DNA of 63,777 bases, counting the filler, from Circinaria calcarea (lineage: Eukaryota), in the NCBI GenBank assembly GCA_051942165.1. It is 13 parts of 13 records of this genome, joined end to end, with 100 filler letters (N's around TTAATTAATTAA, not from the genome) between each part and the next. Parts side by side here need not be neighbours in the genome. Positions count along the whole stretch, not along the records: positions 39,354 to 44,163 come from JAVECS010002167.1; 12 more parts are not named here. One strand, written 5' to 3'. Below are positions 4,828 through 51,323 of this stretch, in pieces. A model generated the notes under the pieces. It made no database searches. It had not been told where the DNA came from and saw only the letters and a list, made by a program, of their open reading frames with translations. Each line of letters opens with the position of its first letter. Position 1 is the first letter of the stretch. Both the position numbers and the translations under genes were made by a program.

Positions 4828-4927
4828 NNNNNNNNNNNNNNNNNNNNNNNNNNNNNNNNNNNNNNNNNNNNTTAATTAATTAANNNNNNNNNNNNNNNNN
4901 NNNNNNNNNNNNNNNNNNNNNNNNNNN
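4828..4927. other. Artificial contig linker N44-TTAATTAATTAA-N44. Same linker at 9754-9853, 14676-14775, 19595-19694, 24512-24611, 29428-29527, 34343-34442, 39254-39353, 44164-44263, 49070-49169, 53973-54072, 58876-58975
   Basis: Identical 100-nt block with stops in all frames recurs every ~4.9 kb. Segment lengths fall from 4827 to 4802. Genes are cut off at the linkers. Confidence 0.99.
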
Positions 4928-9753: not shown

Positions 9754-10414
9754 NNNNNNNNNNNNNNNNNNNNNNNNNNNNNNNNNNNNNNNNNNNNTTA
9801 ATTAATTAANNNNNNNNNNNNNNNNNNNNNNNNNNNNNNNNNNNNNNNNNNNNCCTCCCCCAAATTTCCCCAATCTTCCCCTCTCACCCCCTCAAGTATC
9901 AGAACTATAGTGACGAAACTTCCCATCTCCATCTCGCTCGAGCTAAGAGTTTATAAAACAGAAAAATTCCATGATAATAATTTAACAACGGTAATTTTCC
10001 GGGGTTTCCGGGATTTCCGGGGTGAGGTTTAGAAAGATAGGAAGGATCAGATAGGATCGGATTGGTAGGTTGGGATTGGTTGGGAATAGATTTATGGGAG
10101 GGGGAAGGAGAAGGGGAAAAGAGGGGCAGTATCGAATTCAGATCTCAGACGTCACGGGTATCAAACGAGGTAGGTAGGTGGGATATTTGTATAGAACGGA
10201 GCTATATCAATCCATTACTAGATTTCTGGGTTTGGTTGGCAGGTTAGACGAGTAAGACATTGGTAGCAAAGGGAGGGAGATCGCTTGATTAGATCAATGT
10301 ACAAGGGGTCCAGAAAACTTTAGTGATACAGGAATAGATGTCTGAATTATTTCTCCAAGGGAGAAAATGGATCCCTTGCTCACCGGCTCTTTCAGACAAA
10401 TGAGCTCCATAAGC

Positions 10415-38559: not shown

Positions 38560-41349
38560 GTCATAGCTTGCCATAGGGTCGGTCTGGAATAGCGCTGTTG
38601 CATTGGGATAATTGTGTGATTGAGGTGACCAACTCATGGAACTTTGTTCATCGCATGGCTTGGAGCAGCTTGAGTTGGCGAGCCTTTTGTGGCATAGGTA
38701 GTGTACAGAATACGCATGCTGGCAGAATAGCTGCCTTGGGTATCAATTCATTCAAGCCTTGCCATCCTGTCTTGTCCTCTCCGCACCCATTCCCTGCTCT
38801 CTGTTCCTTGTAGACCACCCCTCCACCACCCCGGCGACCAAACATATCCCCTTTTTCTTACATGACTTTTAAACCTACCCAGCAAACCCCCACTCCCACT
38901 CCCAAGTCCAAATAGATCAGGAAAAATCCTTCAACGCGTATTAGGTTGATGAAATGAATCTCTAGTCTCTAGTAACCGGAATCGAATTAATAATAGCTAG
39001 AACTGAAACTTACCCATCCTCCTCCCCTTCCCCTTCCCCTTTCCCTTCCTCCCCAGTCTCACGACACCTTCTCGTCCTTTTTCGTCATTCGCCTTCGTCA
39101 TCCCCTTGGCTTTTGCTCATTCTAGACCTAGACCTAGCCCTGTTGGATGCAGAAGATGAAATGTTCCCTAAGTTCTGGCTTTTTTTTTCACTTTTTCACC
39201 TTTTGGGGACGCTTGGTGGCTTTTGGCTTGGGTGGCGGGGAGGGGGGATGGAGNNNNNNNNNNNNNNNNNNNNNNNNNNNNNNNNNNNNNNNNNNNNTTA
39301 ATTAATTAANNNNNNNNNNNNNNNNNNNNNNNNNNNNNNNNNNNNNNNNNNNNCTGCCGATGGCGGCGGTGGTGGAGGAGTTGCTCCGCGAGGCTGCGTA
39401 TCTGGATGGCTGGTTGCATGTGGGGATCATGATGATCGGGTGATTTTTTGACAAAGGGAAGTGGGTGTGAGGCGAGTTGTATTTTTCATAAGAATTTCCC
39501 CGAAACGCATCCAGGGTTTTCTCGGTGCTACCTAATTTTTTGCATGGAAAAGTGCCGTGTTAACTCATGATACGGTTTGACCCTACTGATCTCCCGTCGT
39601 GCAAATGTACGGGGAAAACCCCACGTGCGGATCGAAACCCTATCAATTTTCGCTTACGACCTTTCTTCCCCGGTTCTCTCCTGCAGAGTCTGCTTGGCAA
39701 TAGCTCCCTACAATACGAAAACAGCCGTCGACATTCGTGATTGCTCGTCCCCGTTGCGCGTTGTCCTCATCTGTCGACTACCGCCACCAGAGTATCCGTC
39801 AAAATACGGAAAAAACCCCTTCCTTCAGCGTGAATACCCCGTAGCTGTATGAACGAACCTCGAGAAGCCGGTAACTGAAACTTTCCAAATTTCCCTTTCT
39901 TTTCCCCAATTACCCTGATCCCCGTAGTAAACCCATCTCTGAACCCGTCATAAATGCGAGCATGACGGGACATTTCGCATTCTGCAACTTCCGTGAGAAG
40001 TAATGTTTTGTTTCCAGCGCGGCTGGTGAGCGAAGGAAATTTCCCTTGCCTGGCCCCAGCCGCTGCGAGGATCAGGGGTGCTAAGCATCGACACCCACAT
40101 CATCCTTTATCCCGTCACCCAACTTGTGCAAACCTCTCACCGTCGACATGCCTTCACATTCTGGCGTCTTTCGCGGGATGAATATTTCCTTGGGTTCTCA
40201 TTTTGGTTGCAAAAGGTCCGGTCACTTGGTGCCTTGGCCATTCATTCCCTTGGCCCGTTTTTGATGATTGTGCTCCTGGTCCGTTGGATCCTTGGATGAC
40301 GCCTCCATTTCTTTGTGCTCTTACTTCTTCTTCTACTTCTTCTCCTTGTGATGATGATGATGCATGCTGTGAGTGTAAAGGGCGAGTGAGGAGAAATCGC
40401 TGAACGCTTCATCGGTCATCGACTTTGTGATACGCTCACACGCACCTGGACACAGGCCTCTCATCTCATGCGTCGACAGAGGAGCTCTCTTCCCACTCAC
40501 TCATTGCAGACGCTTCCGGATTGCATCACGGCTCGGTCCCCCGACAATCTCTGCAACCCGCTGGCCTTCCTTCCTGGACGATCAGGACATCGAGGGAGGG
40601 TTAGTTTGAACTGATGGCAAACAACTATATCACTATGAAGATGAATGGGTGCAGGGTTAGTAGATGCGTATTTGAGGTGAGTGCCGATAGCTGTAGGGAC
40701 TGACTGGTTCTGACTATGCGTCGAGGGAGATGGGCATAGCTTCGGGTCACTGTTGAGGAGGGAGAGATGGGATAGAGAGATAAAGAAGGGAGAAGAGGGA
40801 GAGAGAGGCTGTTATAGCTGGAGTTGCCAGAAGGACACCTACCGATTGCCGTAGAACCCTTTTCTTCATCTCCCGCTCGCTGCAACGTTGAAAGGGCATC
40901 CTTATCTAGAAGCTCTTCCTTGCGTTCGAATACCAACCTCCTTTCCCTTCTTACCTTCATCGAAAGCCTTCCTAACCTCGAACTTCTTCAACGCACACAT
41001 TCGATGGGCGGAAACTTCCGTTACAACCGATACCATGTGGAGTACGAGCTGTTTCGAAAGGTCCTAGGGATGAAGAAGTCCAAGAGCGAAGGGAACGATC
41101 ACGCAATGCGAGTTCAGGTCACCACCGGCCGGAGCACGCAGCACGAAGCAAAAAACCCACAATTCGGTAAGAGGTTGGAGCAAAGCGAAGCCTGAGCAAA
41201 GAGAAGCGCTAAAAGCTTTCCGGTCATATACTCACATGTGTCCTGGGATGACATGGAAAAGAGAGTGAGATACATACAACCCGACCCGTCCTGCTCTTGA
41301 CGCAACGGCTCCAGAGACGATCATTTCCGCACTTCCCTCGAGCTCCCTT

Positions 41350-41424
41350 TCCCCACACCCCCTTACGGAGGACTTACGACACCACGGTCCTCCCCACATC
41401 CCCCCTACGGAGGACTTACGACAC
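41350..41424. repeat. Two-copy direct repeat, ~41-bp period
   Basis: TCCCCACA(T)CCCC(C/T)TACGGAGGACTTACGACACC occurs twice. Confidence 0.85.
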
Positions 41425-42150
41425 CTCGACCCGTTGGCCCCCCAAACCCTCGGATGGTATTGGTTCAAACCTAGCACCCTTTCCCACACTCAACACGGCG
41501 GCGTCACTATACCAGTGACCCCGGTATACAAGATTGCCATCGAGGCCAAGCTTGCCAAGACCCTCCACCTTCCTTATAAGTGCCTCTCCGAGCACAAAGA
41601 CGAGTCATACCACCGACGCCCAGTCCGGGGCCGATCCCCCTCCTCCAGTGAGCTGTTAGTGGCGTCACGCCCTGAGTAAGCCTGCTCCCGTCCACGCAAT
41701 GCTTGCGGTCGCATGGCAGCGTCCCAAGGCAGTGTATGTTCCATGAACTTCGGAAGCTGCTCCCACTTCGGTCAAGTGGTGTTTGAAAAAGAAAAAGTTG
41801 TTGCCGATGTGTAGAACGGCGGGAAAGCCACGCGAATTCGTGGGGCCGGATTGATGTTGTTGCTGTCACTCGGTCCTGCAAAAACATTAGGTCAATAGGT
41901 GTAACCTTGGAATGGCTAGGAAAGGGTTGGAAATACCGCAAGGACATCCTGCCAACGGGAATGAAACGTGGCTCCGACCAGCCTCTCTTGTGTCAACTGG
42001 CAACTGGTTCGGGAATCGACCTTGCAGCCGTTTTTTGTGACGGCGTTCTAAACTCATATATATCCTTCTTCCTGGAGATGCCGCGTTCTGTGGTTTCCAT
42101 CGAAAATCTCGAAACTTCCCCTCCGTATCCCAGCGTCCCCCTCCGAGATG

Positions 42151-43559
42151 GGCGGTTTTTGGCTTTTCCGCATGCCCTTTGTGGATGCGACCTGCGTATC
42201 CGCCACGCCATAACCTGGGGCAGCTTGCTGAGGAAAAGACTCTGCCGTTTGGGGTGAAGGGCGTGGATTCTGACCAAAGAGGCCATTCGCAAGAGCAAGT
42301 GTCGATCGCTGGGTTGGCACGGTTAGATGTCTGACCGAAGAGGCCATTTGCAAGAGCAAGAATGCGCGGTTTTTGGCTTTTCCGCATGCCCTTTGTGGAT
42401 GCACTCTGCGCATCCGCCACGCCATAACCTGGGGGAGCTTGTTGAGGAAAAGACTCTACCACCGGTTGTTGAGTAAGCCGTGGGCGGTTTTTGGCTTTTC
42501 CGCATGCCCTTTGTGATTGCACTCTGCGCTCTGCCAGGCCATAACCTGGCGGAGCTTGCTGAGGGAAAGACTCTGCCACCGATTGGTTGAGTAAGCCGTT
42601 TGGGGTGCAGGGCGTGGATGGCGTGAATTCTGACCAAAGAGGCCATTCGCAAGAGCAAGTGCCGATCGCTGGGTTGGCATAGCCGTTTGCCATCTCGACT
42701 TGTTCTGTTGACTCTGCCAACTTGTTCTTTTGATATTGATTGTCGAATAGTGACCAGAATCTTGAGAGCCTGACCGGAATTCCCGGTACAGCATTCCCCC
42801 TCCTGAAATGGGCGGTTTTTGGCTTTTCCGCATGCCCTTTTTGCGTCTGCAATCCCCTAGCTCGTCGTCTAGGCCCAGAGACGACAGGCGATTTGCATCG
42901 AGTTGCACAGCACCAACGTATCCATACCGAAGCCAAGCTCGGCCACGATCTGTGTGCGAACACGGCATCGGTTCTCATATATACATATATCCCGCGGGCC
43001 GCAGGACAAATTGCTCCGTGGTCCCTTTGAAGGTCGCTCTCAACTCTCTAGACCGCGTTCTTGAAAGCACCAGACATTTCATCTTTAGTCGCCTCCTTGC
43101 GTTGAAAGGTCCGACTAAGGAGCGAGAGATTTGGACTCAGTCCAAGGTAGTTCTCACACCGGGCCTTTCCTCAGGTGATGTGCCGAATAGACTTTGGCAC
43201 CTCTTGATACGGCGGTTTTTGGCTTTTCCGCATGCCCTTTTCTCTCTTTCTCTCTATTCTCCAGGTCTGGACTTGGACGAAGACGAATTGTTGAAATGGC
43301 GGTTTTTGGCTTTTCCGCATGCCCTTCTCCCTTCTTCTCTTTATTCTCCTGCTCGGGACAAGAACGACGAGGATTTCCCAGCAACCTCTAGACCTCTGAG
43401 ACGGAGCATGTGTCCCAAAGCCGGGACATTCTGGAGCTGGAACGGCGGTTTTTGACTTTTCCGCGTGCCCTTCCTTTCCCTTGTTGTTGGCTCCTGGCCT
43501 AGACGAGTTCGACGAGCGAACCTTTGAAATGGCGGTTTTTGGCTTTTCCGCATGCCCTT
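42151..43559. repeat. Interspersed array of 8 copies of the 29-bp motif GGCGGTTTTTGGCTTTTCCGCATGCCCTT, nested in longer diverged units
   Basis: Copies start at 42151, 42365, 42483, 42811, 43211, 43298, 43444 (2 mismatches) and 43531. Periods are 214, 118, 328, 400, 87, 146 and 87 bp. Confidence 0.95.
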
Positions 43560-44548
43560 TGCCCAAGATCAGGTACCCAACTCACAAACGATGGGCGCCA
43601 GGGAAGCATGTACCCGAGAGCTTCTTCGTAACCGAAGCAACAGTTCTTGCCTGCGAAGAGCTGGCCCATCGTGGGTGCTGAGAGCTGTCTCCTCCAATCG
43701 ACACGCTTTTGTCAGCGAACGGTATCGGATCTCAGCGCCGAAAGGTAGGGCCGACCTCTTCTTCAGCCACAGTAGTGGTGGTGAGGTGGAGAAGAAAGCT
43801 CAATTCGCTCAAGAACAGGTATCGATTGCCGATCCCACACAAAAATCCTGCTGTCGTGGTCAAATCTTTGAAGACAAAGTGATTCCTTTTACATGTACCA
43901 AGAATGGAAAATACAGTATCGGGGATGATTCTGAAATCCGCAGTCATGGTGAATGGGTCTAGACAATCGTCACCCGAGACAAACTCGAACCAGTCGTGAA
44001 GGTGGGAACAAAGTTCGGGGGTCACTTCGAACCAATTATGTCCTTGGATATCAATCCCGTCATCTTCTCACAACCTTCGGGCCGTTTGTATGGCTTGGCC
44101 GGAGCTGGGGGCATTCTCTACTGCTGTCAGCATCTCCGATGGGCTAGGAGGGAAGCCAAGTTTNNNNNNNNNNNNNNNNNNNNNNNNNNNNNNNNNNNNN
44201 NNNNNNNTTAATTAATTAANNNNNNNNNNNNNNNNNNNNNNNNNNNNNNNNNNNNNNNNNNNNCGAACAAGTATCTCAAATCACAAATTTCCGCCAAATC
44301 TCCAAGACTAGCCCTTCGTCAAACTCGTTACAGTCGTGCAAGCCATAGCAAGCAGTCGCTGCGGTATGAAACATATGATAAGCAGATGGTATGATGTGAA
44401 ATGGCGCTGGGGGTTTGAAGAAAGGGTAATGTGATGTCGGATTTAAATACATTAGAGTATGTATAAAGTCGTAAGGGCATGTAAAATTATCGTGCGGGAA
44501 GTATTTTCGTATGTAATAAACAGCAAGTAGATCATAGTGTAGCGCGGC

Positions 44549-49169: not shown

Positions 49170-51323
49170 GCTCAGTTGAAGATGACCAGATAATCAAGGC
49201 GAAAGATCCAATTATTGACGTGAAAGCAGCAAGAAGGGCAGCAAAATTCCTTGAGGATCTTGAACTTGACAGTTCTAGATCGGAGCAGAAATCGGCGGGG
49301 AACTCTCGAAATTACGAACGTAGCCGATCGCGGCGGGATCAGCAATACACTGACGAATATGAAGACGAAGAGGACATGGCTTTAGCACGAGCCGAACGAA
49401 AGAAGCAACGAAAACGAGATAGAGCTGCACGGAAGGCGACTGCACCACCAACGCCTATTATTCTGCCAGAGTTTATCAGTATAGGGAATCTTGCTAGTGC
49501 TCTTCGGGTGAAAATCGACGAATTTGTAGAGAGGATGGTGTCTTTGGGTTTCGAGGAGACCAACAGCGATTATGTTCTTGATGCAGAGACAGCTGGTCTC
49601 ATTGCTACCGAATTTAATTACGACCCTATCATAGATCGAGGAGAAGCTGAAGATCTGGTAGCCCGACCTCCCGCGGAAGACAAGTCACTTTTACCACCGC
49701 GGCCACCTGTTGTTACGATTATGGGCCATGTGGATCATGGCAAGACCACACTTCTCGATTGGTTACGGAAATCTTCAGTGGCTGCATCTGAGCATGGTGG
49801 TATTACCCAGCACATAGGGGCTTTCACCGTCCCTATGCCCTCTGGGAAGATTATCACTTTCCTGGATACGCCTGGTCATGCTGCCTTTCTCAGTATGCGT
49901 CAGCGGGGTGCCAACGTCACCGATATTGTTATTCTCGTGGTTGCTGCTGATGATAGCGTAAAGCCTCAGACCGTTGAGGCCATCAAGCATGCCCAAACCG
50001 CCAAAGTGCCCATGATTGTTGCTATCAACAAGATTGACAAGGAAGGGTCCAACGTTGAGCGTGTAAAACAGGATCTGGCTCGCCATGGTGTGGATGTGGA
50101 AGACTTTGGTGGCGATACCCAGGTGGTCTGCGTCAGTGGCAAAACCGGTCAGGGCATGGACGAGCTCGAAGATGCTGCTGTTGCTCTCGCTGACATAATT
50201 GATATGCGCGCGGAGACGGACGGGCCAGCCGAAGGGTGGATTTTGGAAGCTACCACCAAGAAGGCAGGGCGTGTAGCAACTGTCCTTGTTCGACGTGGCA
50301 CCATATATCCCGGCAGCGTCATCGTGGCTGGCTCGACGTGGTCCAAAATTCGCAGCTTGAAGAATGAAGCAGGAGCACAAATCGACTCTGCTGGTCCTGG
50401 TACCCCTGTGGAAATTGACGGCTGGCGAGAACAGCCCGAGGCAGGTGATGAAGTGCTGGAGGCACCTGATGAGCAAAAGGCTAAGGATGTGGTAAATATT
50501 CGATTGGAACGTGCCGAGACAACCCAAATGGCGGTCGATATGGTTGCTGTCAATGAAACTCGCCGGATGGAACAGGAGAAGCGCGAACGTGAAGAACATG
50601 TCGCTGATAGTCAAGACGTAGAGAACGTGGACCCCCCGACCGGAATCAAGGAAGTCTTCTTCATAATCAAAGGCGATGTCAGTGGGTCTGTCGAGGCAGT
50701 ACTCAACAGCGTTTCGGCCCTAGGCAACGAAGAAGTACGGGCGCACATACTGCGGTTTGGTGTAGGCCCAGTTAGCGAGTTTGACGTCGAGCATGCTGCT
50801 GTTGCAAAGGGGCACATCATATCTTTCAATACCCCGGTTGACCCTAATATAACTCGCATGGCTGAAGCTGCGGGAGTTTCTATCTTGGACCAGAATATCA
50901 TCTACCGGCTTGTTGACGATGTCAAGGCAAAACTCTCCGAGCAGCTGGCTCCCTCGATTACCTCGCGTGTGCTCGGCGAAGCTGAAATTGCTCAGGTTTT
51001 TGACATTAATATCAAAGGCCGGGTCACCGTGCCGATTGCTGGGTGCAAAGTCCGTAACGGCGTCGTGACCAGGAACGGGAAGGTTAGGGTGCTTAGGGAG
51101 AGGGTGATGATCTACGATGGTTTGTCTTTCCAGCTCTCTACACATGTGAATGTACTGAATCAAAGTGCTAGGTTCGCTCTCATCGTTCAAGAACCAGAAG
51201 AAGGATGTCACGGAGATGCGCAAGGGGGGTGAGTGTGGTCTCGGGTTCGAGGGCTTTACGGATTTCAAGGTCGGGGATCAGGTGCAATGCTACGAGGAGA
51301 AGGTGGAGAAGCGATCATTGTAA
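49170..51323 (+). CDS. IFM1: Mitochondrial translation initiation factor IF-2 (5' cut by contig edge)
   Basis: RPPVVTIMGHVDHGKTT, GGITQHIGAF, DTPGHAAF, NKID, KGDVSGS. Intron ~51120-51171 before the final exon. Confidence 0.96.

Follow-up and report, generated by a model that had tools for sequence, protein, structure and literature searches.

A near-invariant 29-nt element repeated in gene-less DNA assigned to the lichen-forming fungus Circinaria calcarea: a possible cluster of protein-binding sites

The window, by which we mean the whole 63,777-nucleotide stretch of DNA analysed here, consists of 13 contigs of 4,802–4,827 bp concatenated in descending order of length. The joints between them (4828–4927, 9754–9853 and onward) are each made of 44 N, a 12-base linker and another 44 N, and no features can be read across them. 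Several contigs carry recognizable fungal genes, with an Mto1-type domain, a cytochrome P450 and a mitochondrial IF-2. Because the IF-2 frame is 100% identical to an NCBI protein of a Circinaria calcarea metagenome-assembled genome (MAG), with other Lecanoromycetes as the next matches, we take the window to originate from the MAG of a lichen-forming fungus. The IF-2 frame itself (49172–51229, plus strand) begins at the start of its contig; the identical NCBI model, P0003 (1,143 aa), adds a caspase-type domain (PF00656) that is absent from the other IF-2 matches; P0003 may be a fused gene model. The subject of this study is the following contig:

39354–44163, unstranded: array-bearing contig, 4,810 bp, 52.5% G+C, with limits set by the N runs

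This contig is devoid of recognizable genes. None of its 82 stop-to-stop frames of at least 40 aa reaches the Pfam cut-off, the best signal being one low-complexity match of 17.8 bits against a cut-off of 25. The codon-usage log-likelihood totals of its 25 frames of at least 80 aa range from -8.2 to +13.3, all at noise level, whereas the 25 best frames of the other contigs reach 17.1 to 139.5; the training set held 10 of those 25, and the untrained ones still score 37–39. The Rfam 15 covariance models give 0 matches at gathering score in the whole window and 0 at E≤1 on the array contig, and a tRNA gene scan found 0 genes. The description of a gene-less contig given by an earlier, first-pass annotation of this DNA is thus borne out, as is its statement that no cas gene or transposase is visible. 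Its suggestion that the source organism may differ from that of the other contigs fares less well. The tetranucleotide correlation of the array contig with the others is 0.516 (0.501 with the array removed), which lies inside the range of 0.404–0.578 found for the others, and therefore a different source is not indicated. On the best reading of its sequence, the array is non-coding DNA that belongs to the genome of a lichen-forming ascomycete, with the uncertainty that attaches to the assignment of any gene-less 4.8-kb binned contig. In the left half of the contig, 40758–40808 and 40319–40347 are occupied by purine-rich (GA) sequence of low complexity and a TCT microsatellite. A separate 29-nt direct repeat (41358–41386 and 41400–41428, 93% identical, period 42 nt), 700 nt upstream of the array, has no relation to its core.

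A search of both strands of the whole window for the 29-mer core, with up to three mismatches allowed, returns exactly eight matches, all on the plus strand; the same search of 100 dinucleotide-preserving shuffles gives matches in 0/100. The eight copies are:

42151–42179, plus strand: core copy 1, 29/29 identical, with GAGATG directly before it
42365–42393, plus strand: core copy 2, 28/29, with C as base 1
42483–42511, plus strand: core copy 3, 29/29
42811–42839, plus strand: core copy 4, 29/29, with about 22 nt upstream like those of copy 1 and downstream DNA of its own
43211–43239, plus strand: core copy 5, 29/29, opening an 87-nt unit pair (repeat family D3)
43298–43326, plus strand: core copy 6, 29/29, with GAAAT directly before it
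43444–43472, plus strand: core copy 7, 27/29, with both changes outside the CGG and CCG triplets
43531–43559, plus strand: core copy 8, 29/29, with GAAAT directly before it

This agrees in full with the first-pass annotation, which had listed eight same-strand copies at these positions, six of them exact, with a mismatch at the first base in one further copy and two mismatches in another. The match scores are bimodal: eight positions score 27–29/29, none in the window scores 19–26, and 18 further positions score 17–18, in the range of the shuffles (mean 13.9, maximum 20). A gapped scan recovers the same eight copies, and its remaining matches (22–25) lie inside the shuffled range (maximum 28). 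No 12-mer of the motif occurs in the window outside 42100–43600, no inverted, minus-strand copy is present anywhere in the window in either the ungapped or the gapped scan, and the other 12 contigs (about 58 kb) contain 0 copies. The periods between successive copies are 214, 118, 328, 400, 87, 146 and 87 nt, as previously given, leaving gaps of 58 to 371 nt between cores (derived from the periods). Modulo 3 they are 1, 1, 1, 1, 0, 2 and 0, and no helical phasing of the spacing is seen.

The DNA around the copies is a nest of local duplications, of which the main parts are:

42053–42062, plus strand: TATA-like 10-mer, about 90 nt upstream of copy 1, recurring at 42974
about 42137–42700: block A, with copies 1–3, their tails, an interleaved 69-nt module and a 31-nt sub-module
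42180–42246, plus strand: tail of copy 1, with paralogous tails after copy 2 (42394–42460) and copy 3 (42512–42577)
42251–42319, plus strand: module M, 69 nt, with a second copy at 42611–42679 (93%; families D4, D5 and D8)
43197–43564, plus strand: block C, with copies 5–8 in four units of periods 87, 146 and 87

In block A, the tails of copies 1–3 (about 67 nt, repeat family D2) are 92% and 65% identical without gaps, the downstream flanks of these copies are 86–95% identical when gaps are allowed, and the 31-nt sub-module within module M recurs at 42330–42360, bringing its copies in the block to three. Each unit of block C consists of a core, then a pyrimidine-rich tract, then a GACGA-rich stretch, and the downstream flanks of copies 5–7 are 73–80% identical. 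Copies 6 and 8 have upstream DNA in common (30/37), and copies 4 and 8 are each followed by downstream DNA of their own. A GAAATG-like hexamer stands directly upstream of five of the eight copies. Between groups, the flanks can essentially not be aligned. The first-pass annotation had sorted the flanks into unrelated groups, and the grouping holds for copies 1–3 and copies 5–7 and for the separate downstream DNA of copies 4 and 8, but not the complete unrelatedness, because the roughly 22 nt upstream of copy 4 are shared with copy 1 (29/32 aligned positions). Core-bearing modules have been duplicated head to tail, as a 118-nt unit present 2.0 times, as two 87-nt pairs and within the nested families D2–D5. 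Across the array, Tandem Repeats Finder reports only the 118 nt x 2.0 repeat (90% identity) and two 8-nt micro-arrays, so that the array does not have the constant period of a satellite or minisatellite. Tails 1 and 2 also contain an imperfect 19-nt palindrome (42187–42205 and 42401–42419) with a 6–7-bp stem, in which one one-sided change preserves pairing; it has decayed in copy 3. The idea that the tails of copies 1–3 are inverted, degenerate cores was rejected: shuffles score as well in 11/500 cases for tail 1 and 31/500 for tail 2, and in 157 to 493 of 500 for the other six tails, so that none is significant once the eight tests are allowed for.

The core is not kept for the sake of a protein. 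Since the periods break frame, the constraint on it is not protein coding, as the first-pass annotation had argued, and the noise-level codon scores and the lack of any Pfam match on the contig agree with this. One long stop-free frame does cross the array:

41890–43047, minus strand: 386-codon stop-free frame across copies 1–4, codon-usage score 0.022 per codon

Because copies of the core fall in three different frames within it, this stretch is not a gene; it stays open because the repeats contain no stop triplets. A precursor of repeated peptides, or short ORFs starting at the ATG that precedes some copies, can be dismissed on similar grounds, with the core in all three frames and a codon score that is noise.

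We used the 386-codon frame solely as a search probe, and it identified a single relative. A word-seeded search of 5.8 billion clusters with the 386-aa translation yields 0 relatives among 3,183 candidates of 212–676 aa and one match among 281 candidates shorter than 212 residues, namely P0001 (190 aa, ENA, E 6e-13); an exhaustive HMMER search of 1.84 billion representative proteins returns P0001 alone. Since P0001 reads the core in two different frames, it is a spurious ORF over an array, like the frame in the window. Aligned to the window by tblastn, it covers block A with the parts in the same order, and it extends past copy 1 into 81 nt of unique upstream DNA (42068–42150), where 12/27 columns are identical. 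Judged by this alignment, the DNA behind P0001 is a homologous array in another assembly; this second array may be an ortholog, a paralog or another copy of an element.

The comparison with P0001 and that among the copies point in the same direction. In the two in-register alignments, 17/18 core codons are identical, versus 37/87 and 32/79 of the flank columns (41–43%), an excess with binomial P values of 5e-6 and 2e-6. The two out-of-register alignments show no excess (2/13 and 10/27 in the core), which is expected because the frames differ. Other patches are also kept in P0001, such as a stretch of tail 3 (42538–42567, 9/10 identical) and a stretch of the module (42631–42666, 7/10), and the core is the only conserved patch common to all flank groups. 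Within the window, identity measured for core and spacer separately, a comparison proposed in the first-pass annotation, is 27–29/29 for the cores; the spacers are 73–80% identical (copies 5–7) or cannot be aligned across groups. In block C, the cores of copies 5, 6 and 8 are identical and that of copy 7 matches at 27/29 despite flanks of about 76% identity. At that level of identity, by our own arithmetic, a 29-mer is expected to survive unchanged in only a few of every ten thousand pairs. These data support the view that the core is under a constraint of its own and is far better kept than its flanks within the array. The first-pass annotation had allowed for either selection or homogenisation of the core; since both genomes have the same core, selection is a better fit than homogenisation in each of them.

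A neutral origin has nevertheless to be weighed, in which the array is a compound minisatellite shaped by slippage and unequal exchange, with the core kept by short-tract gene conversion or by chance. The nested tandem duplications (118 nt x 2.0 at 90%, two 87-nt pairs) are what such a process would leave, and in copies 1–3 the core (28–29/29) is not clearly better kept than its flanks (86–95%). However, identical cores recur across flank groups that cannot be aligned, no decayed copies of the core appear in the ungapped or gapped scans, and the core is retained in the second assembly beside flanks that are 41–43% identical as pseudo-codons. Moreover, if conversion were limited to the same 29 nt in each copy, selection would be required to explain that limit. 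We consider a neutral minisatellite rather unlikely.

The repeated 29-nt core with differing DNA between its copies had led the first-pass annotation to speak of a CRISPR- or iteron-like architecture and of an unknown mobile element or virus. The former is unsupported, because the spacing is irregular (periods of 87–400 nt, core gaps of 58 to 371 nt), the spacers are paralogous to one another and there is no cas or rep domain. Nor did the latter find support, given that terminal inverted repeats are lacking, the motif is absent from the viral collection and the composition fits the neighbouring fungal contigs. The exact 29-mer has 0 matches in metagenome contigs, 0 in viral contigs and 0 in papers. 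A 20-mer sub-core gives 42 rows in metagenomes and 12 loci in prokaryotes; in viral contigs it gives 0 matches. The 53 loci that contain it were rejected as relatives, since none continues into the 3' part of the core. An array of CRISPR-like repeats or iterons from a virus, a plasmid or a contaminating prokaryote is hardly conceivable on this evidence.

The loci with the 20-mer fall into a bacterial family of terminator-like hairpins, a multi-contig repeat of one Planctomycetota MAG, and singletons. The repeat of the Planctomycetota MAG and its metagenome (L006, L007, L022, L031, L033, L034, L042–L045, L047 and L050, all containing the 20-mer) is longer than 70 nt and recurs almost unchanged on numerous contigs, in many cases at their ends; it probably represents an insertion sequence or some other element present in several copies. 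The hairpin family comes from soil metagenomes (L002, L016–L018, L021, L023, L025, L026, L032, L036, L038 and L039) and consists of a terminator-like hairpin, a T run and a conserved downstream stretch; one contig holds two copies 1,072 nt apart.

A more specific form of the mobile-element idea is that the array is a subterminal block of repeats bound by a transposase or recombinase, in a non-autonomous element extending past the contig. Some DNA transposons have arrays of short direct repeats, set in unrelated DNA, close to their ends, and the present array resembles them; the contig has no host gene, and P0001, instead of being an ortholog, could represent a further copy of the element. Yet the window has no inverted copy of the core, and only three weak inverted pairs were found, none of which brackets the array, although a distant end could lie beyond so short a contig. 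There is also no remnant of a transposase, integrase or reverse transcriptase among the 82 frames, no copy of the core in the approximately 58 kb of the other 12 contigs, and only one relative among 1.84 billion representative proteins. We regard such an element as improbable.

The dyad of the core, which the first-pass annotation had described as hairpin-like, is present in the sequence as GCGG...CCGC, with a 4-bp stem and a 12-nt loop, but its stability is no better than that of shuffles. The fold z-scores of the core are +0.40 (RNA, plus strand), +0.43 (RNA, minus strand) and -0.54 (DNA), and a hairpin function was rejected for this reason; whole units folded as RNA give z -1.9 to +0.7. A scan for bacterial promoters and terminators is uninformative for a fungus.

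These folds also bear on the possibility that the core acts as RNA, with the array transcribed as a long non-coding RNA that docks protein or RNA, or that is cut into small RNAs. All copies lie on one strand, the whole 29 nt are near invariant, which fits base-pairing or a defined RNA–protein contact better than a degenerate DNA site, and a TATA-like 10-mer is found about 90 nt upstream of copy 1. On the other hand, neither the units nor the core fold better than shuffles, there is no Rfam match at E≤1 on the contig, and tandem duplication alone gives a common orientation. The recurrence of the TATA-like 10-mer is within chance expectation by our own arithmetic, and the P0001 alignment stops at 42068, short of it. 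An action at the RNA level is therefore unlikely in our judgement, if still worth keeping in mind. In a particular version of it, lichen-forming fungi would have a lineage-specific repeat RNA whose functional unit is the core, and each core would recruit a protein or be processed at a constant site. This version is compatible with the near invariance of the 29 positions, with the common orientation of all copies and with the absence of a gene, and we hold it to be distinctly doubtful. It would be equally doubtful, by analogy, to see in the locus the equivalent in fungi of non-coding RNA scaffolds built from repeats, or of arrays that generate small RNAs.

In ribosomal DNA intergenic spacers, a conserved protein-binding box is typically repeated in one orientation, with diverged sub-repeats in between, and the architecture seen here resembles this. 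The contig is gene-less and its G+C content slightly above that of its neighbours, which would also suit such a spacer, with the cores as polymerase I terminator, enhancer or fork-barrier sites. But no rRNA match occurs anywhere in the window, so that the spacer would have to exceed 4.8 kb, and this origin is very improbable.

The feature of the core that suggests a binding protein is an inverted pair of triplets, CGG-N12-CCG, which occupies its 5' two thirds and is found in all eight copies (8/8) with the triplet spacing of an AtrR-type site. All three base changes in the window copies fall outside the triplets, and the single change of a core residue in P0001 implies, by our own reading, a change in the spacer; that all four changes miss the six triplet positions has a chance probability of about 0.4 (own arithmetic). 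An exact CGG-N12-CCG is expected in 0.4% of random 29-mers, CGG...CCG at any spacing of 0–20 in 7.8%, and any triplet pair in 20%. Because of the latter two values, which apply when the spacing is left free, the dyad is only a hint. Two further CGG-N12-CCG sites within the array (42320 and 42463) have nothing else in common with the core and are attributed to chance. The form CGG, 12 nt, CCG is typical of a dimeric Zn2Cys6 zinc-cluster factor, and sites of this class normally tolerate variation in the spacer. As all 29 positions of the core are near invariant, spacer included, a single dimer is an insufficient explanation, and this near-total invariance leads us to keep open both a composite site and the rival readings discussed above.

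Based on these sequence comparisons, we tentatively propose that the array is an old, locally duplicated cluster of candidate sites for DNA-binding proteins. One ancestral unit with a cis-element of about 29–35 nt would have been multiplied by several rounds of local tandem duplication, which results in one orientation of all copies and in nested families of flanks. The flanks of the units would then have drifted, some of them past recognition, while purifying selection preserved the core. The selected function would most likely be the docking of one or more sequence-specific DNA-binding proteins; a protein-binding site was among the options named by the first-pass annotation, and it is the one that we favour, with somewhat less than even confidence. 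The class of factor that the triplets suggest is a dimeric Zn2Cys6 zinc-cluster protein on CGG-N12-CCG. The invariant 3' part of the core (CATGCCCTT) and the semi-conserved GAAATG upstream could make this a composite site for more than one factor. The eight copies together may form a homotypic enhancer or upstream-activating cluster whose target gene would lie beyond the contig ends; against an enhancer role stands the lack of any gene on the contig, so that no target is visible. If the proposal is correct, the array would act as duplicated enhancer elements do, by raising promoter output.

To our knowledge, almost nothing is known of the cis-regulatory DNA of lichen-forming fungi. Repeated cis-elements in duplicated regulatory modules are already known, and what is new here is this motif and its host. 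Preserved across old duplications and found in two assemblies, the 29-nt element is a ready probe for a factor that may bind it and for a set of genes that it may control. The array also offers a test of whether copy number tunes expression, as in the promoter duplications of azole-resistant Aspergillus, and, if the core acts as RNA, it would represent a new class of repeat RNA in fungi. Neither a eukaryotic CRISPR-like system nor a new virus can be deduced from the array.

Among known systems, CRISPR arrays and plasmid iterons share with this array direct repeats of similar length, and they differ from it in that here the spacing is irregular, the spacers are mutually related, cas and rep genes are lacking and the host is a eukaryote. 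In the A-repeat of Xist RNA and in the terminator boxes of mammalian rDNA, a core of about 18–26 nt is repeated 8–10 times in one orientation and serves as a docking site. By analogy, the conserved core, single orientation and variable spacers seen here recall both, although these belong to another kingdom and context and the present array shows neither RNA structure nor rRNA linkage. Yeast sites of the Gal4 and Put3 type show degeneracy beyond the triplets, and their spacers are shorter; they are found no more than a few hundred bp from the gene and are not known to be set in duplicated units. The likeness of the array to these upstream activating clusters, again an analogy, would consist in inverted CGG triplets at a fixed spacer, with several copies per region. 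The closest form of the element is that of AtrR, a Zn2Cys6 factor of Aspergillus fumigatus, for which passages of two papers give the consensus CGGN12CCG (PMC10294635, PMC12505884). According to the same passages, TR34 and TR46 each duplicate in tandem an enhancer element that contains AtrR and SrbA sites, and these duplications increase the expression of cyp51A (PMC10294635, PMC12505884). Unlike TR34 and TR46, the present array has eight copies over 1.4 kb, old and diverged flanks and a core invariant over the whole 29 nt; its host is lichen-forming and distant from Aspergillus, and its contig carries no gene. What it shares with the AtrR element and the TR34/TR46 cyp51A promoter, as far as those passages describe them, is a CGG-N12-CCG site in a module of about 30–46 bp, arranged head to tail in non-coding fungal DNA.
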